Origin: Heterodontus francisci | Taxonomy: Eukaryota | Assembly (NCBI RefSeq): GCF_036365525.1 | Contig: NW_027140825.1 | Coordinates: forward strand, 620,001-684,000 | Length of the DNA stretch: 64,000 nt | Reading direction: 5' to 3' | Shown: piece by piece, positions 1,336-63,794 of the stretch | How the letters are laid out: each line of letters starts with the position of its first letter | How positions within the stretch are numbered: position 1 is the first letter of the stretch | Notes under the pieces: model-generated | Told to the model about the DNA's origin: nothing | Seen by the model: only the letters and a program-made list of their open reading frames with translations | Database searches by the model: none | Made by a program: the position numbers and the translations under genes

Positions 1336-1446
1336 ATGCAGAGACGCACAAAGCGACACAGAAACCTGCAGATAGTCAGAGAGACAGAAAGACACTGAGA
1401 TAGACAGACGGGTTTATCTCCCACAAGTGCTTTCCTCCCCCTTTAG

Positions 1447-1485
1447 AGTTTTTGCTGAAATCTGGCACCTTTCTGAGTCACTGTG
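1447..1485 (-). other. 23-RSS of inverted V segment
   Basis: Minus strand: CACAGTG (1485-1479), 23-bp spacer, GCAAAAACT (1455-1447). Confidence 0.95.
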
Positions 1486-8504: not shown

Positions 8505-8825
8505 ATGGTTCTCCAGTCCCCGGCGGCCAACGCCCTGGTTCCTGGGGAGGAAACCACGTTCCACAGCAGAATTGGGCAGAGCAACATGACTGAGTGTTGT
8601 TTGGACTGGTACTTGCAGATTGGTGACTGCCTGGGATGGATCAGATGGAGTGCACTTTCTGCATCTAACAACAGGAAATGGATTGAAACCCAGCACGAGA
8701 CTCAGGCCAACACTTTCCCTCTGTCGTTGAAAAGCTCCTGGGTCCAAGACAACAGCGCTTACTACTGCAGGGCTCACAAGGATACACACAGTGTAACTAG
8801 AATGGAAGGAAACAGGGCAAAAACT
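8505..8825 (+). pseudogene. Atypical Ig-like V pseudogene with 23-RSS (RSS 8787-8825)
   Basis: VLQSP...FHSRIG (first Cys replaced by Ser)...DWYLQ..CLGWI...NTFPLSL..QDNSAYYC; CACAGTG-23-GCAAAAACT; no intact leader found. Confidence 0.8.
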
Positions 8826-9959
8826 TGGGAATTGTGTAATACATCTTACCCCAGTCTCTGGGGGTACGGTAGCATAGCTGTTATGTTACTGGGACTAGTA
8901 ATCCAGAGGCTTCGACCGAATGATGCAGAGCACTGGAGCTCAAATCCCACCACAGCAGCTGGGATAATCAAACCAAACAAGCACCACCTTAAATATTTAC
9001 TCCCTCCGCCACCGACGCACATTGGCAGCAGTGTGTACCAGCTACAAGATGTACAGCAGTAATGCACCAAGGTTCCTTTGACAGCACCTTCCAAACCCAC
9101 GAACTCTACCAACTAGAAGGATAAGGGCAGCAGACGCATGGGGAAACCACTGCATGCAAGTTCCCCTCCAAGCCACACACCATCCTGACTTGAAACTATA
9201 TCGGCCGTTTCTTCACTGTCGCTGGGTCAAAATCCTGGAACTCCCTTCCTAACAGCACTGTGGGTGTACATACCCCACATGGACTGCAGCGGTTCAAGAA
9301 GGCAGCTCACCACCACCTTCTCAGAGGTCAATTAACGAAAAATAATACATGCTGGCCTAGCCTAGCCAGTGACACCCACATCCAATGACTCCCTGCTCCT
9401 CTCCAATTTCCCAATATTAACTTCCTCAGACTTGTTCTCAAATCCCTCCATGGCCTCACCCCTCCCTATCTCTGTTGCCTCCTCCAGCCCCACAAGACAT
9501 TGACATCTTCTGTGTTCATCCAATTCCTGGCCTCTTGTGTATCCCCGATTTTAACACTCCACCATTGGCGGTCATGCTTTAAGCTGACTTGGTATTAAGA
9601 TCCTGAATTATCTCACTAACCCTCTCCACCTCTCGACCTCCCTCTCTCCTCTTTTAAAATGCTCCGTTAAAAACTCTCTCTTTGATCAAGCCTCTGGTTA
9701 TCTCGCCCGAAATATCGTTCTGTGGCTCGATTTCCAAAAACGTCAGAAATGTTCTTATTGGTATCACTGCTGCTAAGCACCTTGGGACATTTTGCTGCAT
9801 TAAGTGTGCTATTTAAATGTAAGTTGTTGTTGGTGTAACGGAAAAAGTAAGGGGACCAGCTTTATTAATTGACGTTACTGATCAGCAGCGAGCCCGATGA
9901 GATTCTCCTGACACGGAATTGTATTCCTGAGGAAGTGAAAAGCACATGTTTACATCTCC

Positions 9960-16130: not shown

Positions 16131-16539
16131 CTCCTCTAATACTGGGCTTTTGAGCAACCCCGACCTTAATCGTTCAACCACTGGTGGCCGCAGCAGGGAC
16201 ATTGATATCTGCTCAGGGGCCTCACAGTGTCGTGTGTACTGCCTACACAAGCCTTCTCCCAGCTCTCTGGCTTTGCTCATTGTTGTTTGCATATGTTGCT
16301 GAATGTGTACCTGTGGCCTGTGGGAGATCTTATCTGTGCCTCTGATATGAACAGTCCACTGTTCTACGACTGTGAGCATCTTCTGACAAACATTTTTACT
16401 TTGCAGGTATTTTATCAGCTGCCATAGAGCAGGAAGGACACAGAGGAGCAGAGCTGAAAAGAAATAACTGAGGGTGAAAAAAATTATGTGATGATTTGAG
16501 ACTTTAACTACCCCGATATTGAATTGGGCAGTCAGTAAG

Positions 16540-18145
16540 ATTATACGAAATGGGAGCAAGGAGTAGGCCATTCGGCCCCTCGAACCTGCTCAGCCATTCT
16601 ATAAGATCATGGATGATCTGATTGTCGCTTTAACTCCACTTTCCTTTCTGCCCTCTATAACCATGACACCCTTGTAGAATCAAAATCTGTCAAACTCAGG
16701 CTTGAATATATTCAATGACCCAGCCTCCGTTGCTCTCCAGGGAACGGAGTTCCACAGACTCACAATTCTCTGAGAGAAAAATATCCTCCGCATCTCCGTC
16801 TTAAATGGGAGACCCCCTTATTCTGAAATTGTGCCCCCAAGTTCTAGATTCCCCCACGAGGAGGAACATCCACTCAGCATCTACCCAGTCAAGCCCTGTC
16901 AGAATCTTACATGGTTCATTTTTCTAAACTGCAATGAGTATCTGCCCAACCTCTTCAAACGTTCCTCATAATAATCGTAGAATCACAGAACTGTGACCAC
17001 GCAGAAGGAGGCCATTCGGCCCATCGTGTCTGCACCGGCTCTCTGAAAGTGCAACTCCCTCAGTTCCACTCCCCCGGCCTCTTCCTGGAACCCTGCAAAT
17101 TCTTCCATTTTATGTAACTGTCTAATTTTATTTTAAATGTTTCAGATGAATCTGCCTCCACCATGTTCTCAAGCAGCGCATTCCAGAGCTTAACCACTCG
17201 CTGCATGAAAACTTGTTTCCTCATGTCACTTTTGCTTCTCTTACCAAATACTTTAAATCTGTGCCCTCTCGTTCTCGATCCTTTCACGAGTGGAAACAGT
17301 GTCTACTCTGTCCAGGCCCCTCATGATTTTGAATATCTCTCTCAAATCACCTCCCAGCCTTCTCGTCTCCAAGGAAAACTGTCCTAACTTCTCCAATCTA
17401 TCTTCATAACTGAAATTCCTCAACCCTGGAACCATTCTTGTGCATCTCGTCTGTACTCTCTCAAATGCCCTCACATCTTTTCTCAAGTGCAACACCTAGA
17501 ATTGGAGTCAATACTCCAGCTGAGGACAAACTAGTGTCTTATACGGGTTCAACATAACTTCCTTGCTCTTGTAATCTATGCCCCTATTAATATAGCCCAG
17601 GATACTGTATGCTTTATCAACCACTCTCTCAACCAGTCCTGCCATCTTCAATGACTGATGCACAGATACACACAGGTCTCTCTGCTCCTTCACCCCCTTT
17701 AGAATTGTAACCTCGATTCGATATTGTCTCTCCATGTTCTTGCGACCAAAATTAATCACTTCAAATTTCTCCACATTGAACCTCATCTGTCACTTGTCCG
17801 CCCATTCCACCAACTTGTCTCTGTCCTTGTGAAGTTCTACACTATCCTCCTCACAGTTCACAATGCTTCCAAGTTTCGTATCATCTGCAAATTTTGAAAT
17901 TGTGCCCTGTACACCGAGGTCTTTGACATTAATATATATCAGGAAAAGCAAGGGTCCCAACACTGATCCTGGGGAACTCCACTACAAACCTTTCTCCAGC
18001 CCGAAAAACATCCATTAACCACTATTCTCTGTTTCCTGTCACTCAGCCAATTTCGTAATCCATGTTGCTACCGTCCTCTGTATTCCAAGAGCTACATGTT
18101 TGCTCACAAGTCTGATGCGTGGAACTGTATCAAATGCCTTTTGAA
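16540..18145 (-). mobile_element. CR1-type LINE fragments
   Basis: ORFs MRFNVEKFEVINFGRKN...RDLCVSVH...LVCPQLEY and ERVQTRCTRMVPGLRNFSYEDRLEKLG. Confidence 0.85.
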
Positions 18146-19859
18146 AGGCCAGGATTTCTCATTTTCCTCTGTCAGGCCTTGAATGAGCTGGATTATCCAG
18201 GGTGGAAGCACAGACCAGAATAGAATGGAGTAGCACAAGGTTTGGGGAATGCTGGGCAGTCCCACTACGTACAGTCACATCCCTTATGATCTCAGCCCTC
18301 AGCAATCATTTAACAGTGAGTGTTCCCTCCCTGAACAAAAAAACACTGGATTTCCATGATCAGATGGGAAAGCCATTCCAGCAAAATCAATCAGCTTCTT
18401 GAGACGGTCAGGTTCAATATTCATAGATATATTGAGCAGACAGAGAATGCAATAAAACTTTAAACACACAGTTTACAATCAGATTTGCAATCACACTGGG
18501 TGGTCAGGGAGTCAAACACGTTAAAAGGCCTTTCCATGCTGCAGCTCTCCTTGTTTGAATGTCCATCAATGGAAGATACACAGCCATGTTCACTTATTGC
18601 AGACGTTTTACATTGTTGCACGAGAGAGTTGTGACCAATGAGTCATTTCACAACAGTTCAACAGACTGATCAGGATGTTAATATTGGGAAATTGGAGAGG
18701 AGCAGGGAGTCAGTGAATGGCAATAGTTCCAGGGGTTATGGGTGAACAGGGTTCGGAGTGAGTGAAGACACAGGCAGCAAATGTTTGTATGAGTAAAAGA
18801 TCAGGAAGTGTGAAGGATGTGCGGTTGGCCAGGAGAGTATTGGAATAGTCCAGTCTGGAGGTAACAGAGGCACGGATGAGGGTTCCAGCAGCAGATGAGC
18901 TGAAGCAGGGGCGGTGTCGAGAGATGGTGTGGAGGTGGAAATGGACAGTCTTGGTGATGGTGTGGATATGTGGTCGGAAACTCATCTCGGGGTCAAACAC
19001 AACAACAAAGGCTAAAAACTGTCTTGATCAGTTTCAGACAGGTACCAGAGATGGTGTCGGTGGTCCAAGAATGACATTTGTGTCGGGGATCACAGACAAT
19101 GGCTTCAGTCTTCCCAATATTTAGTAGGAGAAAATAACTGCTCATCCAGTATTGGATGTTAGACAAGCAGTGTGGCAGAGCAGAGACAATGGAAGCATTC
19201 ACAGAGGTGTTATTGAGATGGAGTGTTGTCAGCATTAGGTTCCTGAGCTCAGTATAACTCCCTTCCTTTGTTATTAAACATTTGACATATGCCACACATA
19301 AATGCTTTGTACTCAATGAAAGCTTTCCTTTTCAATATATTTTGATTCTGCAAAGTTCAGCATCAACCAATCCCCCATTCTGCATGAACCCTCAATTTAA
19401 AAGATGTTATCTACCCTGAGGTCCTCCTTGGACAAGGACCAACTGTTTTCCTTGCCCCTATTCTCAGTGCTGACAGCTCCATGAAGTTTAGGGACCTCTA
19501 CTCAATGGTAGATCTTTAAAGAAACTCCCTCATTAAACCTGAGATCACTTCATCCTGAAACTGGCCAGAGCTGTCAGGTTAGTCTGGGTTCAGCTGACCA
19601 GTGGTCACTGTACACAAATGGGATCGTAGTTCTCTATTTAACAAAGCAATAGCGTAAAGCTCCCACACCCCTGCAGTATAAAGACAGACCAATTACAGTT
19701 TAACATTAGCATACTTCTAGTCGGAGATTAACCCTTTGCTGACAATTTCCTTGAGTTAAACAAGGTGAAGATAAGATGGTACAGTGATTGAGTGAGGATG
19801 TAAAACACACAGAGACTGGATCACACGTGTCGGGTGCTTGTTGACATGTCCAAACACCT

Positions 19860-22800
19860 TCACACTTCCACAGGCTCACTAGCCGAGCACTGAACGTCTT
19901 CTGGATCCAATTCGAGCTTCGTGTGTGGACACTGATCCTGGAACATGTGCTTCATCTGCATCACAGAGAGGAGAAACGATGAGTATTACTGCAAAGGGAG
20001 GAGTGAATAGAAAGAGACAGAGAGGATACAGACAGAGATCGGGAGAGAGGGTGGGGGCAAGACAGTGAGAGACAGGGTGAGGCAAAGATACTCAGATAGA
20101 GGGAGAGAAGGAGAGAGAGGGTGGGAGAGCTACAGGGATTGAGACAGAGGTAGAGAAACAGAGTGCGTGAGAGCGAGAGGTCGTCAGAGATGCAGTGAGG
20201 GAGAGACAGACACAGACAGAAAGAAAGACAAAGAAAGAGAAATACAGAGTGGGTGAGCGAGGCAGAGAAAGAGACAGAGATAGAAAGGACATAAAGAGAG
20301 AATGGGGAGAGTGAGAGGGAAGACCAGAGAGAGGTTACCGTACAACGAGGAGGCCATTCATCCCCTCGAGTCTGTTACACAGGAACAGGAGGAGGCCATT
20401 CAGCCCCTCTTTCGAGTTAATGCACAGGAACAGGAGAAGGCCATTCAGCCCCCTCACCCCCTCTCCAGCCTTTCACACAGGCTCAGGAGGAAGCCCATTC
20501 AACCCCTCACAAGCCTGATCTGGGGGACCAGAAGATAAGCAGAGGGGGAATTAGAGCTGTTTAAATAATGACCTGGAGTTCCCATTCAGTGAATACAGAC
20601 AGTGAGAGGGAGGATCTGTTGTCTCCCGTGTTTCTCCTCAGTACAGTGCAGTCTCTTACCCTCTCCACAACGATTCTCTTTGCAGTTTCATCATCCAGAT
20701 CAGTCATTGAAGTGATCTTCACATTAATCCTCTTGTATTTGGTATCTAAACACAACAGTCACAACATCAACAGGTTGAACACACCCAGAGTTTAGCACAG
20801 GGCACGGGACGTATTTCGAATGATCTCTCCTCTCTAATTTAAACTCTCTTTCCTCCAGTTTGTCATCCACTCGTTTGTTCATCAGTCTCTGTTATTCTCT
20901 CTATCTCAACTCGTCTTGCCTCTAATCTGCCCTCCCTGTGTTATCATCCTCTATCCTGCACTCTCTTCTCTGTTGCCTCTTGTTCCATCTCCCAGGATCA
21001 TTTGCATTCCGTGTTTACTCCGGTCTCACTGCCCTTTTCTCTGTCTCTGTCGATCACTCTCACTCTCTCTCTCTCTCTGATGCTCTCTGTCCCTCTGACA
21101 AAGACAAAGACAGAGAGACAGACAAAGAGCATCTGTGAGAGAGACAGAGAAAGAGTAAGTGAGAGTCAGAGAGACAGACAGGGAGACAGAACATCAGAGA
21201 GAGTGGGAGACAGAGTGAGGTGAAAGAGGGAGCTGGAGAAACTGAGAACCACATAGGAGAGAGGCGGTTACAGAAATGAAATATATTTATATATGCGTGT
21301 GAAAGGCAGATAAAGGAGAAACAGAGAGACAGAGATAAAACTGAGAGTTACAGAGAGAGCGATGTGAGATAGAAGCTCAAAGATATTTCTGAAGGAATTT
21401 CTGGACGTTTACGTTTCTGTGTTTCCCAATGTATCCAGTCATACTGAACACAAGCGACTGCAACTCTTGTCTGACAGCACAGACTAGGCAGAGAGAGAGA
21501 GAGTGAGAACGATGGGTTTCCCTACACAGAACGATCACACAGCTGTTTGGAGGCCCTCGGTCCTGATATATTTGTGCCAGACTGAGACAGGAGGAGGGAT
21601 TTAATATTCCTGAAATGTGGAGAATCTGAAATGTTCCCACCATCATCAGAAACAGGCTGGGAGTCGGGAGGTTCCTCGGGAGTAGACGGAATCCCCGAGT
21701 CTGTGAGGGTCAAATAAAGACAAGAGGAATTTCACTGGGATTCAGAACGCTGGATGAGTGGACAGAAGTGTTTCAACACAGAACCTCCTCTCGTATGTAA
21801 TCTAACTCCCTCGACACACTGAATCAATGTATACCAGCCTTTACTGAGGGGGGACACAAGATATCATCGGCTGCAGAATCAGTTACTACTCCAACAAGAA
21901 ACAAAAACTAACAGAGAAAACTCAGGAGATTATCAAAATGATCAGCGAAACGACAGGGGGAAAGTGGAGTCAGAGAACAACAGAGAGCAGGAGTGAGAGA
22001 AAAGGAGGGAAGGCGACAGGTGTGAGACAGAAAAGAGTAAGGGAGATCTGGAATGAGTGTGAACAAGAGTGAGAAAAGAAAACAGCACTGTAATGTTCCC
22101 CTTAATCAATACTGATACCCCTCCTCCTTTCCTTCCTCCCCTCTCTTTCCTGAACACCTTGTAGTCAGGAATATTCACTACCCAGTCCTGCCCCTCTTCG
22201 AGCCAGGACCCTGTAATTGCCACAACATCATATTTCCACGTGGCTATCTGCGCCTGAAGCTCAACAACCTTATTTACCACTCTCATTGCATTCACATACA
22301 CACACATTAAACTGAATTTACAGCTCATCACCTTTCCTCTTACACTGTCCCCGTCTCATACGATACTCTTATCGACTCCTTTGTTATCTGTCCCTCCTAA
22401 TTCTCTGTGCATCTATGTTTTGCTCTCTAATATTGCTCAGACCACTGTTTTTCCTGATGTATATTAATGACATAGACTGGGGCGGACAGGGCACACTTTC
22501 AAAATCTGCAGATGACACAAAACGTGGAAGTATTGTGAACTGTGAGGAGGATAGCAATAGACGTCAGGAGGTTATAGACAGGCTGGTGGGATGGGCAGAC
22601 ACTGGCAAATGAAATTTATCACAGAGAATTGTGAAGTGATTCATTTTTGGTCAGACGAACGAGAGGCAATATAAAATAAAGGATACAATTCTAAAGGAGA
22701 TGCTGGGGCAGTGGGACCTGGGGGGACATGTGCACAAATCATTGAAGGTGGCAAGACAGGTCGAGAGAGCTGTCAATACTTAGGAAGGATGTTAAGGTAT

Positions 22801-25800
22801 TCGAGAGGGTGCAGAGAAGATTTACCAGAATGGCTCCCGGGATGAGGGACGTCAGTGACATGAATAGATCGGAGAAGCTGGGGCTGTTCTCCCTGGAGAA
22901 GAGACGATTAAGACGAGATTTGAGCAAGATGTTCATAATCAAGAGGGAACTGGACAGAGTAGTCAGGGAAAAACTGTTCCTCTTGGTGGGAGGATCCAGA
23001 ACTAGAGAGCAACGGTTTTAGGTGAGTGGTAAAAGTCACAACAGAGACAGGGAAACCTTTTCACACAGTGAGTGGTTAGGATCTGAAATGCACTGCATGA
23101 GAGTGTGCTGGAGGCAGGTTTAATTGAGGCTTTCAAAAGGGAATTGGATAATTGTCATTGGAGATATAATCTGCAGGGCGACAGGAAAATGGCAGGAGTG
23201 GGAGTAGGTGAGTTGCACTGCCAGAGAGCTGGCTCAGTGAAGATGGGCTGAACAGAAACTTTCTGTGCCGTAACCAGTCTTTGATTCCATGATTCTGCGA
23301 TGATAACCCCACAAAGCAGATACCTTAGCTTCTAGAGCCCGCTGGGGTAGTGGATGAAACCTCAGTAGATTCTCTAGTCGATTGTTCCTCGGATTCCTGA
23401 GTTTGAGCATCATGCTGCCCTCAGTCTCTATCACACACCCCTCAGTCACTGCATTACACTCACCTCAGTCACTTTATCACATTCCCCTCAGTCACTGTAT
23501 CACACTCTCCTCAGTCGCTGTATCCCTGTCCCGTCAGTCGCTGTATCACACTCTCCTCAGTCGCTGTCTCACACTCCCTTCAGCTCACTGTATCACAATC
23601 CCCTCAGTCACTGCATTATATTCCCTTCAGTCACTGCATTCCACTCTCCTCAGACAGTGTATCACACTCGACTCAGTCACTGTATCACACTCCCCCAAAC
23701 ACTGTATCACACACCCTTCAGTTCACCGTATCCCACTCCCCTCAGACAGTGTCTCACACTCCCCTCAGACAGTGTATCACACTCCCCTCAGTCACTGTAT
23801 CCCACTCCCCACAGACAGTGTCTCACACTCCCCTCAGACACTGTAGCGCAGTCCCCTCAGTCACTGTATCACACTCCCTTCAGTCACTGTATCCCACTCC
23901 CCTCAGTCAGTGTATCACACTCCCCTCAGACACTGTATCGCACTCCCCTCAGACACTGTATCGCACTCCCTTCAGTCACTGTATCCCACTCCCCTCAGTC
24001 AGTGTATCACACTCCCCTCAGTCACTGCATCCCACACCCCTCAGTCACTGTACCACACTCCCTTCAGTCACTGTATCCCACTCCCCTCAGTCAGTGTATC
24101 ACTCTCCCCTCCGTAACTGTATCACACTCCCCTCAGTCACTGCATCACACTCCCTGAGTGACTGTATCACACACCCCTCAGTCACTGCATCACACTCCCC
24201 TCTGTCACTGTATCACACTTCCTCTGTCATTGTATCATACTAACCTCAGACACTGTATCACACTCCCCTCAGTCACTGTATCACACTCCCTGAGTCACTG
24301 TATCACACTACCCTCTGTCACTGTATCACACTCCCCTCAGTCACTGTATCACACTCCCCTCAGTCGCTGTATCACACTCCCCTCAGTCGCTGTATCACAT
24401 TCCCCTCAGTCACTGTATCACACTACCCTCTGTCACTGTATCACATCCCCCTCAGACACTGTGTCCCACTCACCTCAGTCAGTGTATCACACTCCCCTCC
24501 GTAACTGTATCACACTGCCCTCAGTCACTGTATCACACTCCCCTCAGTCTCTGTATCACACTCCCCTCAGTCTCTGTATCACACTCCCCTCAGTCACTGT
24601 ATCACACTCCCCTCAGTCTCTGTATCACACTCCCCTCAGTCACTGTATCACACTCCCCTCAGTGACTGTATCACACTACCCTCTGTCACTGTATCACACT
24701 CCCCTCAGTCACTGTATCACACTCCCCTCAGTGACTGTATCACACTACCCTCTGTCACTGTATCACATCCCCCTCAGTCACTGTATCACACTCCCCTCAG
24801 TCACAGTATCACACTCCCCTCAGTCACAGTATCACACTCCCCTCAGTCTCTGCATCACACTCCCCTCAGTCACTGTATCACACTCCCCTCAGTCGCTGTA
24901 TCACACTCCCCTCAGTCACTGTATCACACTCCCCTCAGTCACTGTATCACACTCCCCTCAGTCTCTGCATCACACTCCCCTCAGTCACTGTATCACACTC
25001 CCCTCAGTCACTGTATCACACTCCCCTCAGTCTCTGCATCACACTCCCCTCAGTCACTGTATCACATCCCCCTCAGTCACTGTATCACACTCCCCTCAGT
25101 CACTGTATCACACTCCCCTCAGTCTCTGCATCACACTCCCCTCAGTCACTGTATCACACTCCCCTCAGTCGCTGTATCACACTTCCCTCAGTCACTGTAT
25201 CACACTCCCCTCAGTCGCTGTATCACACTCCCCTCAGTGACTGTATCACACTCCCCTCAGTCACTGTATCACACTCCCCTCAGTCGCTGTATCACACTCC
25301 CCTCAGTCGCTGTATCACACTCCCCTCAGTCACTGTAACACACTCCCTCAGTCACTGTATCACACTCCCCTCAGTCACTGTATCACACTCCCTCAGTCAC
25401 TGTATCACACTCCCCTCAGTCACTGTATCACACTCCCTCAGTCACTGTATCACACTCCCCTCAGTCACTGTATCACATCCCCCTCAGTCACTGTATCACA
25501 CTCCCCTCAGTCACTGTATCACATCCCCCTCAGACACTGTATCACACTACCCTCTGTCACTGTATCACACTCCCCTCAGTGACTGCATCATACTACCCTC
25601 AGACACTGTATCACACTCCCCTCAGTCACTGTGTCCCACTCACCTCAGACACTGTATCACACTCCCCTCAGTCACTGTGTCCCACTCACCTCAGTCAGTG
25701 TATCACACTCCCCTCAGTCACTGTGTCCCACTCACCTCAGTCAGTGTATCACACTCCCCTCAGTCACTGTATCACACTCCCTGAGTGACTGTATCACACC

Positions 25801-28800
25801 CCTCAGTCACTGTATCATACTACCCTCAGACGCTGTATCCCACTCCCCTCTGTCACCTCATCCCACTCCTCTCAGTCTCTACATCTCACTCCCCTCGGTA
25901 ACGGCATCCAACTCCCCTCAGTCTCTACATCGCACTCCCTTCAGTCTCTACATCCCATTCCCCTCATTCACGGCATCCAACTCCTCTCAATCACTACATC
26001 CCAATCCTCTCAGTCTCTCCATCCCACTCCCCTCAGTCACAGCATCCAACTCCCCTCAGTCACTACATCCCACTCCCCTCAGCCACTACATCCCACTCCC
26101 CTCAGTCTCTACATCGCACTCCCCTCAGTTTCTACATCCCACTCCCCTCAGTCTCAACATCGCACTCCCCTCAGTCATTACATCCCACTCCCCTCAGTCA
26201 CTGCATCCCACTCCCCTCAGTCACTACATCCCACTCCCCTCAGCCAGTACATCCCACTCCCCTCAGTCTCTACATCGCACTCCCCTCAGTCATTACATCC
26301 CACTCCCCTCAGTCACTGCATCCCACTCCTCTCAGTCTCTACATCCCACTCCCCTCACTCACTACATGCCACTCCCCTCACTCACTACTTCCCACTCCCT
26401 TCACCCACTACATGCCACTCCCCTAATCACTTCTTCCCACTGCCCTCAATCATTACTTCCCAGTCCCCTTAGTCAATGCATCCCACTCCCCTCAGTCACT
26501 TAATCCCACTCCCCTTAATTACATCATCCCACTCCCCTCAGTCACTGCATCTAACTCCCCTCAGTCACTGCATCCCACTCCCCTCAGTCACTACATCCCA
26601 CTCCCCTCAGACTCTACATCCCACTCCCCTCAGTCACCCCATCCCACTCCCCTCAGTCACCACATTCAACTCCCCACAGTCTCTACATCCCACTCCCCTA
26701 AGTCTCTAAATCCCACACCCCTCAGTCACTGCATCCCACTTCCCTCAGTCACTGCATCCCACTCCACTCAGTCCATGCATCGCACTGCCCATGTCACGAC
26801 ATCCCACACCACTCAATTACATCATCCCACTCCCCTCAATCACTGCATCCCACTCCCCTCAATTACATCATGCCACTCCCCTCAGTCCCTCCATCCCATT
26901 CCTCTCAGTCACTGCATCCCACTCTCCTCAGTCACCACATCCCACTCCCCTCAGTCACCCCATCCCACTCCCCTCAGTCACTGCAACCCACACCCCTCAG
27001 CCACTGCATCCTACTCCTCTCAGTCACTGCATCTCTCTCCCCTCAATCAGTGCATCACACTCCTCTCAGTCACTGCAACCCGCTCCCCTCAGCCACTGCA
27101 TCCCACTCCTCTCAGGCACTGCATCCCACTCCCCTCAATCGGTGCATCCCACACCCCTCAATCAGTGCATTCCACTCCACTCAGTCTCTACATCCCACTT
27201 CCCTCAATTACTGCATCCCACTCCGCTCAATTACATCATCCCACTCCCCTCAGTCCTTTATAGCCACTCCAGGCGCTGCTTCACAAACCACTGACTACCT
27301 CCAGGCGCGTATCCACTGTCTCTCGAGATAAGGAGGCCCAAAAGAACTCCCCTCAGTCACTGCATCCCACTCCCCTCAGTCACTGCTTCCCACTCCCCTC
27401 AATCACCACATCCCACTCCCCTCAGTCACCCCATCCCACTCCCCTCAGCCACTGCATCCCACTCCTCTCAGTCACTGCATCCCACTCCCCTCAATCAGTG
27501 CATCCCACTCCCCTCAGTCACTGCATCCCACTCCCCTCAGTCACTGCATCCCACACCCCTCAATCAGTGCATTCCACTCCCCAGTCACTGCATCCCAATC
27601 CCCTCAGCCTCTGCATCCCACTCCCTTCCGTCACTACATCCCACTCCCCTCAATTACTGCATCCCACTGCCCTCAGTCCACTGCATCCCATTCCCCTCCG
27701 TCACTGCATCCCACTCCCCTCAGTCAGTGCATCCCACTCCTCTCAGTCACTACATCCCACTCCCCTCAGTCACTACATCCCACTCCCCTCAGTCTATGTA
27801 TTCCACTCCCCTCAATTACATAATCCCACTCTCCTTAGTCACTCCATCCCAGTCTCCTCAGTCACCACATCCCTCTCCCCTCAGTCACCCCATCCCACTC
27901 ACCTCAGTCACTCCATCCCACTTCCCTCAGTCACCCCATCCCACTCCCCTCAGTCACTCCATCCAACTTCCCTCATTCACTCCCTTCCACTTCCCGCAGT
28001 CACTCCATCCCACTTCCCTCAGTAAGAGACTGGATGATCTCGAGGACTGATCTTCTATGGTGCAACATTGGGTGTGGAATCTGTTTCAAATGCACCCCAC
28101 AAGGGGGATACCTGATGTTCCAGACACCGCTGGGGTAGACGATGATCCCCTAGTGGATTCTCGAGTTGTTTGTTCCTCGGGTTCCTCAGTTGCGACAGTC
28201 TCTGGATCTGTAATAAAGGAAGAGGGCAGAGTGGAGAAAACCCGAAGATCTCGTTTATTTAGTTCTCTAGTCCAGACAGTGTCAGATTTTCATCTTTATC
28301 AAACCCTCGAAGATCCTATCCAACTCCTCGTGAACATTGCTTCCTGGAGAGGGAGTGTGAGGTGCCCAGCACTGCAGTGGGGACCTGACGTGAGCCATGA
28401 ACACTGCAGGGATCAGAGTGCCTGATAGACAGAGACAGCAGAGTCTGGTTCAGTTCCCTAGAGTTTCAGTGAAGTACACTTTGTGTTTCAGATCCTTTAT
28501 TCACTGTGTCCCTGACAATAAGGAGGGGAGTGAGTAAACCGTCTCATTTCTGTGGGTGACACGGGACATCCCAGAATCACCCTCTGGATGATATAGAAGC
28601 ATCAATGTACCTGTACAATACGCAGCGCAATAAAACAAGGACTTCAACTCATAAACGAAGTAACTGCTGCAGTTTTTGATCTTTATCTCATGGACCTTGT
28701 CGCAGTGTTTTCTACCCCAGGATAAACAAACTGTCCGTGTTACTTCCCCCTGTCCCACGCTGGGATGGGAACCTGAAATGAGAGTTTATAAATATTGAAG

Positions 28801-31800
28801 ACTGTAACCCATGTGAACAGTGCTGTACAGTGAATGTAAATCTGATATTCTCAAGGCTGAAATTACCATTTAACCAGCCTGTAACATGTGTGGAACAGTG
28901 AAAATCTGGGACAGCAGTCTCCGGAATCTTCCATCCACCAGAACTGAAACAAAAATCACAGAGTCAGTCCCTGAACTGATGGCAAATATTAACTGTTAGA
29001 GAGACTGGTACCAGCAGATAGTACCAGAAACTGGGGGAAATCCCTTACTCTGCCCATATTGACTAGATTACCCTGAAATTGTTCCTTTACATTACCTTTT
29101 AAATCTGTACCATCCTTGAGCAAGGTTATCATCACACTTCTCCTGACCGGAGCACCCAGTGACATCACAATCGCTGCTCCTCCAGGGCTGGTCCAGGACT
29201 GTGTGATTTACACACGGGTCAGTGAGTGCAGAGTCTGTGACTGAGTGACAGAAAGATGTTTAATGTTAATATGTGACCTTACATCAGAACTGGGAAAAGT
29301 TCTAGTGACAAGTGAAACCGGGGAGGATGTGATGATAAATGGAAGGGAACACACTCCCCTCAGTTACCGTATCACACTCTCCTCAGTCACTGTATCCCAC
29401 TCCCCACAGTCACTGTATCCCAATCCCCACAGTCACTGAATCACACTCCCCTGAGTCACTGCATGCCACTCCCCTCAGTCACTACACCCACTTCCCTCAA
29501 TTACAGCATCCCACTCCCCTCACTCACTGCACCCACTCCCCTCAGTCAGTGCACCCACTCCCATCAGTCGCTACATCCCACTCCCCACAGTCACTACATC
29601 CCACTCCCCTCAGTCACTACATCTCACTGCCCTCAGTCACTGCATCCCTCTCCCCTTAGTCGCTGCATCCCACTCCCCTCAATTACTGCATCCCACTCCC
29701 CTCAATCACTGCATCCCACTTCTCTATGTCACTGTACCCACTCCACCGAATCACTCTATACCATTCCCTTCAGTCACTGCACCTCACTCCCCGCTTCTCT
29801 ACATCCTACTCCCCTCAGTTACCACATCACACTCAGTAGTCACTACATCCCACTTCCCTCAATTACAGCATCCCACTCCCCTTAGTCACTACATCCCACT
29901 CCCGTCAGTCACTGTATCCCACTCCCCTCAGTCTCTGTATCCCACTCCCCTCAGTCGCTACTTCCCACTCCCCTGTCACTACACCCCACTCTCCTCAGTC
30001 ACTACACCCCACTCTCCTCAGTCACTACATCCCACTCCCCTCAGTCACTACATCCCACTCCCCTCAGTCACTACATCCCACTCCCCACATTCACTGTATC
30101 CTACTCCACCTAGTCACCGCATCTCATTCGCTCAGTCACTGTATCCCACTCCCCTCAGTCTCTGCATCCCACTCCCCTCAGTCGCTACTTCCCACTCCAC
30201 TCAATCACTGCATCCCACACCCCTTAGTCACTACCTCCCACTCCCCTGTCACTCCACCCCACTCCCCTCAGTCACTACATCCCACTCCCCACATTCACTG
30301 TATCCTACTCCACCTAGTCACCGCATCTCATTCGCTCAGTCACTACATCCCACTCCCCTCAGTCTCTGCAGACCACTCCTCTCAGTCACTGCAGCCCACT
30401 CCTTACCGAGCTAGCCGTGTCCTAAAAGACAAAGCTGCTAGTCTGGGACTGCGGTAGGTGATGACAGAACCAACAAGAGGAGAAAATATACTTGACTTCA
30501 TCCTCACCAATCTGCCTGCCACATATCCATCTGTCCATGACAGTCTTGGTGGGCGTGACCACCGCACAGTCCTTGTGGAGCCAAAGTCCCACCTTCACAT
30601 TGAGGATACCGTCCATCGTGTTGTGTGGCACTATCACCATGCTAAATGGGATAGATTCAAACAAATCTAGCAATGTAACAATGGGCATCCATGAGGTGCT
30701 GTGGGAACAACAGCAGCAGCAGAATTGTACTCAACTACAATCTGTAACCTCATGGTCCGGTATATCCCCCACTCGATCATGACCATCAAGCCAGGAGACC
30801 AAACCTGGTTCCATGAAGAGTGCAGGAGGGCATGCAAAGTGCAGCACAAGGCATACCTCAAAATGAGGTGTCAGCCTGGTGAAGCTACAACACAGGACTA
30901 TCTGCATGCCAAACAGCATAATTAGCATGCGATGGACAGAGCTAAGCGATCCCATAACCAACGGATCAAATGAGTTCCGAAGAAGGGTCGCTGACCCGAA
31001 ACGTTAACTTTGCTTCTCTTTCCACAGATGCTGCCAGACCCGCTGAGTGATTCCAGTATTTCTTGTCCTGCCACATCCAGTCGTGAATGGTAGTAGACAA
31101 TTAAACAACTAACTGGAGGAGGTGGCCCCACAAATATCCCCATCCTCAATGATCAGGGAGCCCAGCACATCAGTGCAAAAGATAAGGCTGAAGCATTTGC
31201 AAAAATCTTCAGCCAGAAGTGCGGAGTTGATGATCCATCTCGGCCTTCTCCTGCAATCCCCAGCATCACAGATGTCAGTCTTCAGTCAATTCGATTCACT
31301 CCGCTTGATATCAAGAAATGACTGAAGGCACTGGATACTGCAAAGGCTATGGGCCCTGACAATATCCCGGAAGTAGTACTGAAGACCTGTGCTCCAGAAC
31401 TTGTTGCATCCTTAGCCAAGCTGTTCCAGTACAGCTACAACACTGGCATCTACCCTGCAATGTGGAAAACTGCCCAGGCATGTCCTGTGCATAAAAAGCA
31501 GGACAAGTCAAAGCAGGGCAAGTTCAACCCACCCAATTACCGTCCCATCAGTCTACTCTCTATCATCAGTAAGATGATGGAAGGTGTCGTTGACAGTGCT
31601 ATCAAGCGGCACTTACTCAGCAGTTACCTGTTCAGTGATGGTCAGTTTGGGTTCCGCCAGGGTCACTTAGCTCCTGACCTCATTACAGTGTGGTTCAAAC
31701 ATGGACAAAAGAGCTGAACTCAAGAGGTGAGGTGAGAGTGACTGCCCTTCACATAGAGTCTGTCAGGATCCTGCTGCTGTGTCTGACACTCACCAGAAAA

Positions 31801-34641
31801 CCTGAATCTCCTCAATTGCAGACCTGACAGAATACTACCCAGACATGCCAGCCCTCTCTCCAGACAGCGAGCGTCTGGTTCAGTTCCCTAGAGTTTTAGT
31901 GAAGAGTTCACTCTGTTTTACAGATCCTTTATTCACTGTGTCCCTTACAAAAAGGAGGGCAGTGAGTAAACTGTCTCATTCCCATGGGTGACACGGGACA
32001 TCCCAGAATCACCCATCTGCACCATATACAAACAGCAATCTACCTGTGCAATAAACAGCGTTACAGTCGGGTGGAGGCTTCAACTCATAAACAAAATAAC
32101 TGCTGCAGTTTATGATCTTTATTTCCTGGGTCCAGTGACAGCGATTTCCAGCCTTGTTAAAACAAACTGTCCTCGTTACTTCCCCCTGTCCCACACTAGG
32201 ATGGGAACCTGAAATGAGAGTTTATAAATATTGAAGAAGGTAACCCACGTGAACAGTGCTGGACAGTGAATGTAAATCTGATATTTTTAAGACGGAAATT
32301 ACCCTGTAACCAGCCTGTGGCACGTGTGGAGCAGTGAAAATCTGGGACAACAGTGTCCGGAATCTTCCATCCACCAGAACTGAAACAGTTAATCACAGAG
32401 TCAGTCCCTGAACTGATGGTAAATATTAACTGTTAGAGAGACTGGTAACAACAGATAGTGCCAGAAACTGGGGGAAATCCATTACTCCTCCCTCATTAAC
32501 TGATTTACCCAGAATTTGTTCCTTTACATTACCTTTTAAATCTGTACCATCCTTGAGCAAGATTATCATCACACTTCTCCTGACCGGAGCCCACAGTGAC
32601 ATCACAATCGATGCTCCTCCAGGGCTGGTCCAGGACTGTGTGATTTACACACGGGTCAGTGAGTGTGGAGTCTGTGACTGAGTGACAGAAAGATGTTTAA
32701 TGTTAATATAAAGTACAGTTAATGTTACACAGCGCCTTGTACCCTCCCGAAATACCAATAATCTCAGTTTCACCCTCTGCCCTGGTCAAAACCCCCCAGA
32801 TTAAAGCTGGAAAATGTCCTCCTTCTCTAAACTGGGTTTCCATCTGTCTCCCAGCTCAGCCTCCCCCTCTAACTCACTGCTCACAGACAGTCCTCCCTAT
32901 TCTAGATTAACCACCAGCTCTCAGGTAACAGAAAGCAGTAAATATCTCAGCTTCACTTCATCCCAGTAGGAAAGATGTAAAGTGGAGGAGGAGCGAGAAC
33001 TGCCAGGTGGAGCACAAGCGACCCAGTGTGACTGGTGGGTCCTGCAGAGGGAACGTGTAGTCTCAAAACCAACAACAACCTGCGTTTATGTACTGCCTTT
33101 GATGTAATAAAATGTCCCAAAGCACTTCATCGGTGTGTTACCATCCCGAACTGACACCAATCCACAGAAGCAGCTGGTTGGGCAGGTGGCCAAATGCTAT
33201 GTCAAATAGGTACGTTTTAAGGAGTGTCTGAAAGGAGGAAAGAGAGGTGGAGAGACGGAGAAGTTGAGGGAGAGAATTCCATAGCGTTAAGCCTCGGCAG
33301 GTGAAGGCACAGCTGCCAATGGTGGAAGGGATTCGAATCGGGAATACTCAAGAGGCCTGAATTAGAGGAGCGCAGAGATCTCCGAGGGTTGTGGGGCTGG
33401 AGATGATTTCAGCGGTAGGGAACGGCGAGGTGATAGAAGGATCTGGAAACGATTGTGAGAATATTGAAATCCAGGCCTTGCTGAACCGGGAGCCAGTGTA
33501 GGTCAGTGAGCACGGAGATGAAAGGTGAACTGGACTTGGGCAGTATCATACTGGATGACCAAAATGTACAGAAGGTGGAATGTGAGAGATCAGCCAGGAG
33601 ATCTTTGGAATAGTCAAGTCTAGAGGTACCAAAGTACTGCTAAAGGGTTTGAGCAGCAGAGAAGCTGCAAGAGCCAAGTCAGGAATACTGTTTCTGATCA
33701 TCCTTCTCGAATTGTCGGCAGTCTTTGACACAATTCACCACACTATCCATCGCCAACACCTCTCCTTCCATGTCCAGCTGGGTGGAACTGCTCTGGCCTA
33801 TTTCCACTCAACCCAGTCTAGTCTCAGCCAGAGAATCTCCTGCAGTGTCTTCCCTACCCACTCCAGCACTGCTACCTCTAGCGTATCCCGAGAATCTATC
33901 TTGTCCCTCTCCAATTTCTCATCAGCTTCTGACTGTGCCCAGCTTCCTTCCCTGTCGCCTCCTCATCACAAGGACATCCAATTACAACCTCCTTAATATC
34001 CACCATCACAGATTTTGCCTCAGCCAATCCTCTACCAAAAACCCTCTACCTTCTGGAGAATCAAATCTTCTAATCCACTCCTGGCCAGCCTCCCAGCTTC
34101 CACTTTCCAGAAGTCAGGTCTCCTCCAACACACTGCTTGTTGTATGTTATCTTGCAGAAAGTTTAAGTCACACATCACCCCTGTGCTCTCTGACCCACAT
34201 TGGTTCACAGCTGCAAACGCCTTTGATGTACAATTTCCATCTTCCTGTTCAAATTCTCTCATGACCTCTCCCGCCCTCTCCCACCACATTTCTGTAATCT
34301 TCACCAACTCTCTGTTTCTCTGACCCAAGCCTCCTGTAGAACTTCCCTCCACTCCCTTTCCTCCAGCAGTGTCTGATGTGGCTTCAAGATGTCCAGCCTC
34401 CTAAACCTTTCTGCCTCTCCACCTCCGTCTGCTCTTTTAAACTAACAGTCAGACCTCCAATCATCTCCTTCCCTGCCGTGTCAGACATTTCTTCAATCAG
34501 ATTTCTGTGGAACATCTTGGGATATTATTCTATGTAACGGTTTGAATAAACACAGCTTGTTCTAGTTGTACTGGGGGTGAACTTTGTCGAGAATGAAAGT
34601 TACTCACTCAGGTAACCCAGAATGATCAGCAGAGTCCACAT
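19860..34641 (-). CDS. Secreted GP2/uromodulin/OIT3-like protein with two D8C (D10C) domains, S/T/P/E-rich stalk and SEA-like tail, no ZP domain (~392 aa). Coding exons: 34608-34641, 32533-32677, 32303-32379, 32044-32208, 29096-29240, 28867-28943, 28611-28772, 28112-28207, 21835-21870, 21641-21700, 20660-20745, 19860-19955
   Basis: All exons are GT-AG and phase-compatible, summing to 1179 nt. Signal MWTLLIILGYLITDSTL; twice DPCVNHTVLDQPWRS...CDDNLAQGWYRFKSSGGWKIP...HCST..TGWL.GSHPSVGQGEVTRTVC...C....IKI.NCSSYFVYELK...YCT; tail TKYKRINVKITSMTDLDDETAKRIVVERMKHMFQDQCPHTKLELDPEDVQC. The small stalk exons are less certain. Confidence 0.82.
22080..23280. mobile_element. CR1-type LINE fragments (endonuclease on minus, RT 3' end on plus), intronic
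   Basis: YDVVAITGSWL...IPDYKVFRKER..RKGGGV (minus); YINDID..SADDTK and QRRFTRMAPG..EKLGLFSLEKRRLR (plus). Confidence 0.85.
23324..23410 (-). pseudogene. Degenerate duplicate of the stalk exon of the D8C gene
   Basis: QESEEQSTRESTEVSSTTPAGSRS* aligns with exon 28112-28207 (EEPEEQTTRESTRGSSSTPAVSGTS); TCA has become TAA and the acceptor side is replaced by satellite. Confidence 0.7.
23420..28020 (+). repeat. 23-bp satellite (cactcccctcagtcactgtatca), ~4.6 kb, intronic
   Basis: Tandem 23-mer drifting to cactcccctcagtcactgcatcc; source of the His/Pro/Ser/Thr-rich spurious ORFs. Confidence 0.96.
29350..30400 (+). repeat. Second block of the 23-bp satellite
   Basis: Same unit, more diverged. Confidence 0.93.
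30410..31750 (+). mobile_element. CR1-clade LINE ORF2 fragment (EN-linker-RT) with nested Penelope-like fragment at ~30972-31065
   Basis: EPTRGENILDFILTN..., KPGDQTWF..., MGPDNIP..VLKTCAPEL..WKTA..PVHKK..NYRPISLLS..QFGFRQG. Confidence 0.88.
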
Positions 34642-35104
34642 CTTACTGGCTGAGATTCTGGAAAGGGAAACACAAGACAAACATTTGAGAGAGATTACCG
34701 AGTAGGGAATTGGAGGGAATATTAAATAGGGAGTTGCCGAGGAGTTCGTCAGTATATCTGTTCAGAGTGGTGAGCTCCATCTAATTATCTCTCTCTCACT
34801 GGGACTCTTACAGACAGAGGTGAGCTCAGCTACATGTTCTTGTTAAACATCAGGAACTTGACTCCAATCCTTCACCCTTTCCACTCTCCAAAGCTTTTAT
34901 GAATAATTGCATGTGTTCCTGACTCTCTCCTCCAGGTCTGTCTCCTGCATCCCTGTAACAAACCTCTTTGAATTTCTGGCAAAGGTTATGACTGAAGATG
35001 GTGTTGTTTCAGGAGAAGCAGGACACACACCCCCTGGGTCAACACCTAGCAAGTGACAAACTCCTTTGCTTTTTCTGACAGGCCTCCCATACCCGACTGC
35101 TTAC

Positions 35105-35234
35105 CAAAGTCTCCAAAGTAGATGTCGCTGGGTGGGAGATGCTGTCGGTTCAATTCCAGCTGCTTGCTCCTCAGTCTCGGGTCCACTCTGCTGTGAACAG
35201 TGTCAATCTCAGTGACAGCTCCAACCCCTATATA
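35105..35234 (-). promoter_or_regulatory. Putative TATA box and non-coding first exon of the D8C gene
   Basis: TATATA at 35229-35234, then ~100 nt without ATG ending in a TTG|GTAAGC donor at 35105; the next exon (34608-34657) carries the ATG. Confidence 0.55.
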
Positions 35235-39995: not shown

Positions 39996-41494
39996 ATCCT
40001 TTTCATTGGTGCTTTTATTTTTACTGTTGAAGTTATTGTTGAAATTGTTAGTGTTTTTTTCTGCTGCAGTTGTTTTTGTATTTTTGGGGTGTTTTCTCCT
40101 CCAGGGGGACAGCAGATGGCGAGCTAGGACCAGGAAACACATCAGACTTCACCAATATTGATTATAAAAAACATCGTTTACATTGTTCTGTAAAATTGTT
40201 TCCTTTCTCTCTCTCTTCATGCCTGTTTCTCTGTCTCTGTTGCTCTTGTTATCTTTCCTCTCTCACACACACTCACTCTCATTCTCTTTCTTTATCCCTG
40301 TCTCTCTTTCCTTCTCTCATTTCCTCTCAGCTCTGTTGCTCTTTCTGTCTCTCACACACACACCCATTCTCATTCTCCCTCTTTATCTCACTCTCTTCTT
40401 TCCTTCCCCTCTCTTTCTCGCCTCTCATTTCCACGCTTTCTCTTGCTGTCTGTCTCTATTTCTCTCTCACACGCACTCAGTCTCATTCTGTCTCTCTGTC
40501 TCTAATTAATTCTGCCTATCTCCTCTCATTTCCTGTCTCTGTTTCGCTCTGTCTCTGTCTCTCCCTGTCTGTCTCTACACCTCCTATTGCCTCATTCTCT
40601 CTATCTGTCACTCGTTCTCTCAATCTCTCTCTCTCTCTCTCTTTCGAACTAATTTTCCCTGAATCATTCCATCTCTCAGTGGCTTTGTTGATCAGTCAGT
40701 CTCTCTCTCTCTGTCTTTGCCTCAGTCTACCTCTCCCTTGCTCCCTCCCAGTTGTTCTCTCTCTCTCATTCTCTCTTTATTTCTCCCTATGTGGGGTTCC
40801 CCGGGATGGCCTCTGCCTGTCCGGCTCTGTTCCCCTCTAAGGTTTTGTTGGTATGATGTGGTCAGAGGGTGCTCTGCAAGGAATACAACGCCAGTGACAC
40901 TGGTTATTTGACCTATCTGCAGTTTCCACAGCAGCAGGGGCGGTTTGATCACACTGCTTATAACGAGCCTCCACCTCTGAAAAGAATCTCAAAGTATTTT
41001 GAGATCTGCTTTCCATATTCCTGCTTTCCAGTTTTAAGACAGGAAACGCCACTGTCCCCATTTGGTCCCATTGTTGATGACATTAATGTTCGTAATAGTT
41101 ACTTTATGCATTGCTATACATAATCTCCTCGTCAACCAAATTGAAATAATTTACTGTTCCTTGATGTGAACAGCAGTTCGGATTATTCTGACAGAGTATC
41201 ATCATTAAACATTACCAATTTTCTTTTTTCTCAGATGCAGACTGAATTGGTTTGTATTCATCCTTCCGAGTTTGGTGCATTTATAGTTTTATCAATGTAA
41301 TAAATCTGATTTATAATTGGGCTTAACCTGTGGAGCAAATATAAGTGTGAATGTAGCAGCGTGACTCTAGAAGAATAATTTGTCTCCTTCTTATTCCCTC
41401 TCTTCTGCTTTTGCCTCTGTCCCTCCCTGTGGCCCACTGTCGTTCTCTCCCCATTGATCTGCCATACTGTGTGAAGAATCTTGTTAGATGTTAG

Positions 41495-41815
41495 ATGGTT
41501 CTCCAGTCCCCAGTGGTCAATGCTCTGGTTCCCGTGGAGGAACCCACGTTCCACAGAAGCATTGGGCAGGGCAACATGACTGAGTGTTGTTTGGACTGGT
41601 AATTGCAGATTGGTGACTGCCTGGAATGGATCAGATAGAGTGTACTTTCTGCATCGAACTACAGGAAAAAGATTGAAACCCAGCACGAGACTCAGGCCAA
41701 CACTTTCCCTCTGTCCTTGAAAAGCTCCTGGCTCCAAGACAACAGCACTTACTACTGCGGGGCTCACTAGGATACACACAGTGCAACTAGAATGCAAGGA
41801 AACACGGCAAAAACT
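41495..41815 (+). pseudogene. Atypical Ig-like V pseudogene, duplicate of 8505-8825, with 23-RSS (41777-41815)
   Basis: Same frame with in-frame TAA/TAG stops; CACAGTG-23-GCAAAAACT retained. Confidence 0.82.
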
Positions 41816-42699
41816 TGGGAATTGTGTAATACACCTTACCCCAGTCTCTGGGGGTATGGTAGCATTGCTGTTATGTTACTGGGACTAGTAATCCTGAGGC
41901 TTCGACCGAATGATCCAGAGCACAAGAGTTCAAATCCCACCACAGCAGCTGGGGGAATCTAACTAAACAAACACCACCTTAAATATTCACTCCCTCCGCC
42001 ACAGACGCACAGTGGCAGCAGTGTGTACCAGCTTCACAATGCACTGCAGTAACGCACCAAGGCTCCTTCGACAGCACCTTCCAAACCCGCGACCTCAATC
42101 TGGAAGGACAAGTGCAGCAAATGCATGGGAACACCACCACCTGCAAGTTCCCCTCCAAGTCACACACCATCCTGACTTGGAACTATATTGCTGTTCCTTC
42201 ACTGTCGCTGGGTCAAAATCCTGGAACTCCCTTCCTAACAGCACTGTGGGTGTACCCACCTCACATGGACTGCAGCGGTTCAAGAAGGCAGCTCACCACC
42301 ACCTTCTCAAGGGCGATTAGGGATGGGCAATAATTGCTGGCCTGGCCAGTGACTCCCACGTCCAATGAAGTAATAAAAGAATGTTTGCAGATGTCACTAA
42401 AATCTGTGCACGGGTTAAGACAGTAGAGGGGTCCTGTGGAATCCAAAGTGATTTACCTGTGGCAGGGGATTAGGCCACACAATGGCAACTGGCATTAAAT
42501 TTAGGCAAATGTTGTGTTATGTACGTTGATGGGGCCAGAAATGAATCCAAGTATCACTTGCAGGGAAGACACTGAAAAAGGTCAGCAGAGAATTATTCTG
42601 GTCAGATCATTGAAGGGTGAAGACTGATGTAAAGAGCCTGCAGTAAAAGTTAACGGGTTTTTCGATTGTGTTAATGGAATCATCATGAATCAAATGACT

Positions 42700-44451: not shown

Positions 44452-45077
44452 ATGGCAGTCTCAGCTAAAAACATCTCAATCTTGGTCATCTTATTGCTTG
44501 GACATTGGATTTTTTGTAAGTGCTATCCCTTCAGCAGGAGGAAGTAGATTCAATAGTAATCTCCCAAATGGCTATTGGATCAGTGCTTGGAGCGGGGAAA
44601 TTGGGAGGGCAATGGGGTAGGAGCAGGGGCAAGTGCGACTAACTCGATTGCTCTTTCAAACAGCCAGCGCAGATACGATGGGCAGAACGGCCTCTTTCTA
44701 TTCTGTTAGATTTTATGATTTATGCTACCATTTTCCTTCCATGATTCTGAATTACTTTCTTTTATGGAATGTGTTCCAGGGGTTCAGTCTGCACCCACTG
44801 TGGTCCAGACTCCAGCCGCGGCTTCTATTCGACCGGGGAAGCCCCTCGCCCTCGGCTGCAGCTTGGAGGGAGCCAGCATGGGCAGCTACACCATGCACTG
44901 GTACAGGCAGGAGGGGAAGGCAGTAGAGTGGATGTGCAATGAGCACGGCAGCTGTGGGCCAGGCTTTGAGAAGCGGTTCACTGTGCAACATGACTCTGCA
45001 AGCAACCGATTCTCCCTGCAGCTGGGCGACCCCCAGCCGACAGACACTGCGACCTACTACTGTGCAGCAAGATTGGG
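44452..45077 (+). CDS. Atypical Ig-like V gene segment, intact; leader 44452-44515, V exon 44780-45077
   Basis: MAVSAKNISILVILLLGHWIF|WVQSAPTVVQTP...LALGCSLEGASMGSYTMHWYRQEGKAVEWMCNEHGSCGPGFEKRFTVQHDSASNRFSLQLGDPQPTDTATYYCAARL; GT-AG phase 1. Confidence 0.9.
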
Positions 45078-45116
45078 CACAGCGATACAACCCTGCAGCA
45101 GAGTGAGACAAAAACA
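45078..45116 (+). other. 23-RSS
   Basis: CACAGCG, 23-bp spacer, ACAAAAACA. Confidence 0.92.
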
Positions 45117-56218: not shown

Positions 56219-56541
56219 CTGTGTTTACCTTCTCCACAGGGACAGCAGAGGAAGTGGGACCGGAGGGCTGCAGGACCATGTAACAGACAATGGCTTTGAG
56301 AAGGATTTAGTGAGAAAACTGAAAGAGCAGGAGACCACGCCGATCCAGCTTGATACACATCAACAGGACAAGGACACCCACTTAATTAGAGTGAGAAAGA
56401 GAGTGTGTGTGTGTGACAGAGAGAGAGATGTAGTGAGAGAGTGGATAGAGAGAGGAAAAATGACAGACAGAGTTAAAGAGACTGAGACAGAAAGGTAGAC
56501 AGAGATAGAGGCAAAGACAGCGAGACAGCAAGAGACACATA

Positions 56542-56577
<36 letters not shown>

Positions 56578-58099: not shown

Positions 58100-58166
<67 letters not shown>

Positions 58167-60031: not shown

Positions 60032-60064
<33 letters not shown>

Positions 60065-60783: not shown

Positions 60784-60818
<35 letters not shown>

Positions 60819-63752: not shown

Positions 63753-63794
<42 letters not shown>

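Follow-up and report, generated by a model that had tools for sequence, protein, structure and literature searches.

A ZP-less tandem D10C gene in an antigen-receptor V array of the bullhead shark Heterodontus francisci

We analyzed a 64,000-nucleotide window of the bullhead shark Heterodontus francisci (contig NW_027140825.1, positions 620,001 to 684,000; coordinates below are those of the window), in which a minus-strand gene encoding two tandem D10C domains lies inside an antigen-receptor V array. The gene is real and intact. D10C, also termed D8C, is the head domain of GP2 and uromodulin (UMOD), and the shark product is predicted to be secreted without a zona pellucida (ZP) module. Our best reading, to which we assign a probability of about one half, is that of an intact and probably expressed elasmobranch ZP-less D10C protein, likely a soluble, multivalent microbe binder acting on mucosal surfaces or within secretions. 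By its sequence the gene also belongs to a large elasmobranch-wide family that is already predicted in RefSeq, which the initial annotation of this DNA had missed.

Gene structure, product and transcription

The coding chain consists of 10 exons and runs from an ATG at 34641 to the end of the stop codon at 19860, giving a 1083-nt frame for 360 aa without an internal stop. Each of the nine introns between these exons is GT-AG (9/9). The product is laid out as a signal peptide, two D10C domains, a stalk rich in serine, threonine and glutamate (S/T/E), and a 60-aa tail. A TATA-like box at 35227 to 35234 is the putative promoter, and a putative non-coding first exon at 35105 to 35200 is ATG-free, with a GTAAG donor at 35104 and an approximate 5' end. 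The exon carrying the ATG and the signal-peptide core spans 34608 to 34657 (coding part 34641-34608) and agrees in 11/11 residues with a RefSeq model, XP_067883778.1 (P0003). The first D10C domain is encoded by exons A (32677-32533), B (32379-32303) and C (32208-32044), and the second by exons A (29240-29096), B (28943-28867) and C (28772-28611). These are followed by a 96-nt stalk exon rich in S, T, E and P (28207-28112) and two tail exons, the first (20745-20660) predicted to hold an extended strand and the start of a helix, and the second (19955-19860 for its coding part) carrying cysteines C338 and C352 and the stop.

Twelve coding exons had been proposed initially. The chain is indeed phase-compatible, but a second stalk-repeat exon is dead and a 60-nt exon is optional, so that coding exons number 10 or 11 rather than 12. 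The dead exon (23324 to 23419) is 79% identical to the live one, has a poor acceptor and an in-frame stop at its end, and runs into an early stop with each of the six AG acceptors tried. The in-frame 60-nt stalk exon (21641 to 21700) is used in a paralogue model, P0004, and has nearly no cover in sequencing run X1 (see below). A 26-nt candidate exon at 21870-21845 was rejected since it shifts the frame. Between the two D10C blocks we found no second signal-peptide exon and no copy of the promoter, which argues for one gene, as first proposed, and not two. Copies of the same 23-bp satellite fill two of its introns (23418-28023, with 200 copies, and 29352-30402), and the start of the larger array coincides exactly with the dead stalk exon's 5' boundary.

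The gene had also been described as invisible in the ORF track. It is not hidden from annotation, because P0003, an uncharacterized H. francisci protein, is the same 10-exon product and is identical at 358/360 residues, with two substitutions; the model is a prediction that carries no functional annotation.

The proposed lack of ZP, transmembrane and glycosylphosphatidylinositol (GPI) modules was borne out. Searches of the 64-kb window with the ZP parts of three reptile uromodulins found no ZP exon (best tblastn E 0.46, best hidden Markov model [HMM] E 2.8), while the D10C portions of these uromodulins, as a positive control, matched both blocks with E down to 3e-16. A hydropathy scan of P0003 beyond residue 40 found no transmembrane or GPI-like segment; its maximum 19-residue value was 0.71, compared to 1.6-1.8 at the C terminus of two uromodulins. 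The product predicted from these results is a secreted protein with two tandem D10C domains, in line with the initial annotation.

Five sequencing runs (X1 to X5) bear on transcription. Their RNA status is the tool's guess and none is on record as RNA; contigs of four were compared over 16200-23400. In X1, a 324-nt contig at depth 85 is identical to 19713-19955 (243 nt); at 19955, the predicted last acceptor, its other 81 letters depart from the genome sequence. The X1 bin mean there (49.8) is the value expected if cover stops at 19955. Overlapping X1 contigs at depth 63-85 continue through the 3' untranslated region (UTR) to 18886 and appear again over 18479-18807, with unique intron bins at 0-7, and X2, from the same sample, gave one 861-nt contig over 19096-19956. 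The last exon thus passes, in these probable RNA runs, into a collinear UTR (18479 to 19859, with a putative 3' end). Over 32030-32690, the fraction of words present in X1 was 0.41, where spliced RNA could reach at most 0.47. Taken together, this is a good hint, though not proof, of a spliced transcript that ends without ZP or membrane exons, and the gene is probably expressed.

D10C domains, tail and the elasmobranch family

The domain assignment made initially agrees with a Pfam scan of P0003, which matched D8C_UMOD (PF23283) in two stretches (E 5e-21, 75 bits against a curated cut-off of 27) and no other Pfam entry. On single exons, exon C of each block matched the same profile (E 1e-5, 26 bits, and E 4.8e-4, 21 bits). 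With phmmer, the GP2 decoy module was found at E 9.5e-25 and uromodulin was matched too; these two are the only solved structures related by sequence. An AlphaFold model built from 7 sequences (mean predicted local distance difference test [pLDDT] 61.5) had Foldseek matches at E <= 0.001 to GP2 and UMOD only (E 1e-9 to 6e-7), and the target-normalized TM-scores of this modest-confidence prediction to the GP2 module were 0.64-0.69.

Both domains start with DPCVNHT, as had been noted, and their sequons at N23 and N152, in the two A exons, align with N65 of GP2; exon B of the second domain adds a sequon at N214. A sequon at the N65-equivalent position occurs in 46/100 unique elasmobranch family domains, with D-H-T (18) or T-H-T (17) common. 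The ten-cysteine pattern of the domain (C1-C8, C2-C9, C3-C6, C4-C10, C5-C7) is incomplete, since the shark domain has 8/10. Among elasmobranch domains C3 was found in 0/109 and C6 in 1/109, in contrast to 13/15 of the others, whereas a new cysteine pair was present in 99 and 98 of the 109 and in 0/15 of the others. As judged from these alignments, the elasmobranch D10C is a lineage variant in which the C3-C6 disulfide was lost and a loop pair of cysteines was gained. The second domain here has the extra pair (C165/C170), but in the first, C36 is without the family's partner cysteine at 41. The protein has 21 cysteines in total, and the lost pair member probably leaves one free thiol. The beta-hairpin of the GP2 decoy module is missing, because the first cysteine, C21, is already C1 of the domain and the short inter-domain linker is cysteine-free. 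Likewise, 43 of the 49 family models with an intact start have no cysteine pair before the first domain.

The two blocks differ in how closely their parts agree, with 96% identity in exon A, 89-92% in introns and 77% in exon C, and the tree places domain 2 beside second or last domains from Mustelus, Rhincodon and bamboo sharks (99/96). Because exon A and intron identity exceeds that of exon C and domain 2 groups across genera, the tandem blocks may represent an old duplication that was partly homogenized by gene conversion. Nonsynonymous (dN) and synonymous (dS) divergence between the domains (dN 0.12, dS 0.28, dN/dS ~0.43, Fisher p 0.004) indicates purifying selection. Across the family, the conserved domain scaffold carries some 15 columns of high variability (entropy >= 3 bits).

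A two-domain search returned 151 proteins of 198-630 aa, a length filter that places longer ZP-bearing forms outside it; 120 were listed, many of them isoforms or partial models. Sharks, skates and rays (17 genera) account for 104 of these 120, so the gene is not a lone oddity; the others are cnidarian (7), teleost (3), reptile (3) or unnamed (3). Elasmobranch models carry one to four D10C domains each, and within the length filter none has a ZP match (0/104). A hydrophobic stretch beyond residue 40 occurs in 7/104; in most of these it resembles the signal peptide of a model extended at its N terminus, and in one, a ray model (P0095), it could plausibly span the membrane. In a domain tree of 94 of the 124 complete domains over 122 columns, with 30 ray and catshark domains left out, all 79 elasmobranch rows (79/79) grouped in a single clade (99/94) that excludes the reptile uromodulin, teleost and coral rows.

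The domain itself, the gene prediction in RefSeq, and ZP-less D10C proteins elsewhere (cnidarians) were already known. In open-licence literature, a body outside which most subscription papers fall, we found neither the elasmobranch family nor its disulfide swap or tail described. About 100 RefSeq models of sharks and rays named "uncharacterized", "uromodulin-like" or "GP2-like" make up one definable family, a candidate arm of elasmobranch barrier immunity. Throughout this vertebrate lineage the GP2/uromodulin head appears to be used without a ZP filament; it has a distinct disulfide pattern there and is joined to a small conserved tail that belongs to no named family.

A structure model of the 60-aa tail (32 sequences, pLDDT 83) has one long helix (19-37) between extended segments, which form no sheet in the monomer. 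In a wide structural search, 4 of the top 19 rows were SEA domains or SEA-bearing proteins, with a best Z of 3.4 that was tied with unrelated folds. The tail shares the strand-helix-strand order of the C-terminal half of SEA domains (MUC1, 2ACM chain B; GPR110, 8HC0 chain B) over 46-47 residues (Z 3.2-3.4, root mean square deviation [rmsd] 2.7-3.6), and 46/47 residues of the cleaved MUC1 fragment in 2ACM chain B were aligned (Z 3.4, rmsd 3.6). It lacks the N-terminal half of a SEA domain, however, and neither the tail exons nor tail-bearing homologues have a Pfam SEA match, although a 55-residue piece may fall under detection. Foldseek found nothing for the tail at E <= 0.001. A short tail ending in a stop, as first described, is therefore present, but its SEA likeness is weak, and "half-SEA" should be taken as no more than a reasonable lead. 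Prediction of a tail homodimer (score 0.04, mark 0.32, made without an alignment) counts neither way. The tail profile matches 38/104 elasmobranch models (31 of these 38 were used to build it). A word-index search with the tail gave matches only from Heterodontus, and three of seven matches from a 1.84-billion library (P0121, P0122 and P0124) were rejected as repeat-inflated and unrelated. A second conserved short tail type with cysteines occurs in 13/104 models (including P0020, P0028, P0032, P0074, P0086, P0104-P0107 and P0109), and those members that were scanned match no Pfam entry.

Possible functions of the protein

Proteins with related heads offer the nearest comparisons. In the structural study of GP2, the decoy module combines the ten-cysteine domain with a disulfide-linked beta-hairpin packed against it, and GP2 and UMOD bind bacteria through D10C glycans; FimH binds the glycan at GP2 N65 in a groove, and N65A impairs this binding (PMC8930769). 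The authors suggest that the hairpin/D10C groove helps to keep the N65 glycan high-mannose, while reporting complex glycans at N65 too (PMC8930769). With the GP2 and uromodulin decoys (PDB 7P6R/7P6S/7P6T and 7PFP) the shark protein shares the D10C fold, about 40% domain identity, the N65-equivalent sequon and a signal peptide. It lacks their beta-hairpin, EGF, ZP and GPI parts as well as C3 and C6, and instead has the loop cysteine pair, two heads in tandem, a stalk and a short tail. GP2 is also reported to use high-mannose sites on its ZP core (PMC12212870), which are not available to the shark protein because the ZP core is absent.

Zebrafish omcins are described as tandemly expanded multi-D10C proteins that protect against bacteria, and an omc5 mutant as infection-prone (PMC11415648). 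Several D10C domains (two here, one to four in the shark family) and lineage-specific gene expansion are common to both, but omc5 combines five D10C domains with EGF, ZP and a predicted GPI anchor, and is reported to be restricted to teleosts (PMC11415648). Three unnamed teleost multi-D10C proteins, not verified as omcins, branch outside the elasmobranch clade. The cnidarian matches and VWDE resemble the shark protein in having D10C without ZP, but they have other partner domains (Ig, EGF, astacin).

The microbe-binding reading is favored because of the analogy with GP2/UMOD and omcins, the turnover of the family and its variable columns. In such a protein, the signal peptide would export the chain, the two heads would present N-glycans and variable surface loops, and the S/T/E stalk would be O-glycosylated and serve as a spacer. 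A lone half-domain would need a partner, so the short tail, possibly with unpaired C36, could oligomerize the chain in place of ZP polymerization and give more than two heads per particle. Several points weigh against this reading. The known antibacterial relatives GP2, UMOD and omc5 all have ZP and the shark protein does not, and D10C also occurs in proteins with other roles (VWDE, OIT3). Selection between the two domains is purifying rather than diversifying, and a test for positive selection found none. In runs X3 and X4, from another organism, tail exon 1 and most of the UTR are uncovered. Within the UTR, contig and window sequences diverge by up to 2%, which makes an allele, a paralogue or a sister species a possible source of the transcript. 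In term searches of the main text of papers on shark skin-mucus and nurse-shark plasma proteomes (PMC10707392, PMC9207270) the family is unnamed, though it could hide as "uncharacterized".

Some of these points would also suit a secreted structural or lubricating glycoprotein of mucus, the reproductive tract or a gland, with no specific antimicrobial role and with D10C serving protein-protein or matrix contacts. The mucin-like stalk, whose repeat number varies across paralogues, the purifying selection between the domains, and the presence of D10C in VWDE, OIT3 and coral proteins all fit this alternative, which we consider possible, if somewhat unlikely, given the rapid copy-number turnover and the highly variable columns. 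Such features are more typical of host-microbe proteins. The initial annotation had gone further in the other direction and proposed a mucosal defence protein or bivalent decoy, in which high-mannose glycans at N23 and N152 would, like that at GP2 N65, trap mannose-binding adhesins of the FimH type. A general role in defence is plausible. FimH binding, however, is improbable, even though a sequon is aligned with N65 in both domains, N65A impairs FimH binding in GP2 (PMC8930769), and omc5 mutants are reported to be sensitive to a type 1-fimbriated E. coli strain (PMC11415648). There is no beta-hairpin here or, by the cysteines before the first domain, in 43/49 of the intact-start models; the sequon is kept in only 46/100 domains; there is no filament to provide avidity; and N65 of GP2 is partly complex-type despite its hairpin (PMC8930769). 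The family could provide a natural test of whether the hairpin is needed for a high-mannose decoy glycan.

The position of the gene between V segments with 23-bp-spacer recombination signal sequences (23-RSS), and the ~18 kb of flank and intron sequence common to several H. francisci paralogue models, could mean that it is a lymphoid or thymic product placed functionally in a T cell receptor (TCR) V array and co-regulated with the V segments. We regard this as very unlikely, since the gene lies on the strand opposite to 7/8 V segments, behind a TATA-like box of its own, its closest V neighbor on each side is defective, and TRB loci elsewhere carry non-immune passengers, namely trypsinogens. 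Even less credible is a decaying or mis-assembled duplicate that makes no functional protein. The dead stalk exon, the large intronic satellites and long interspersed nuclear elements (LINEs), and the unpaired cysteine would be expected of one, but the open 360-aa frame, the canonical splice sites, the 358/360 identity to an independently annotated model, the dN/dS of ~0.43 and the exon-shaped contig cover are at odds with it. Beyond the microbe-binding reading itself, a broader and doubtful proposal would be that these proteins form an undescribed, fast-evolving soluble innate recognition family of sharks and rays, in which a re-wired D10C head (C3-C6 swapped for the loop pair), a mucin stalk and a stand-alone C-terminal half-SEA replacing the ZP filament would build multivalent microbial traps through self- or half-domain pairing, with the bullhead gene carried along and amplified as TCR V cassettes duplicated.

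The V array and paralogous copies

Eight V segments bearing 23-RSS make the window an antigen-receptor V array of a cartilaginous fish; they lie at 1485 (minus) and at 4894, 8787, 41777, 45078, 57338, 59382 and 62298 (plus). As first reported, the D10C gene is flanked by them on both sides; it sits between the V at 8787 and the V ending at 41777, with three on one side and five on the other. No RSS with a 12-bp spacer was found in the 64-kb window, and nothing on this locus was found in open-licence literature. The best matches of one V among TCR rows are TCR beta-chain stretches, and another V aligns with the alpha portion of a single-chain TCR. From the CASS/CAW endings the locus is presumably TRB.

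Five family loci are found on five scaffolds of H. francisci (models P0004 and P0006 share one), and the number of stalk repeats varies among these paralogues. Since the paralogue models map across 16182-34515, intronic LINE included, at 72-97% identity, the whole cassette has been multiplied recently in this species. Models P0005, P0006, P0008 and P0009 contain translated LINE and flank sequence and look mis-predicted, yet they mark a multicopy cassette of ~18 kb.

Other features of the array were also noted. The segments 7001-9388 and 40018-42368 form an 87% identical duplicated cassette on both sides of the gene, each with a defective V and an RSS. Three tandem V cassettes at 56500-64000 (RSS at 57338, 59382 and 62298) are 73-80% identical, and two carry stops. 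The V segment at 1414-1902 (minus) is inverted relative to the other seven, and an open V segment with 23-RSS at 44791-45078 (plus) has its best PDB matches among antibody heavy-chain V domains and not TCR, whereas the other V segments are TCR-like. The array also contains an open reading frame at 49290-50045 (minus) for a SNAD1-like secreted AID/APOBEC deaminase (PF18744, E 3.6e-15), and SNAD1 proteins are reported from nurse-shark plasma (PMC9207270). Its first zinc-ligand motif is C-S-E in place of H-x-E and is followed by a PCxxxC-type motif.

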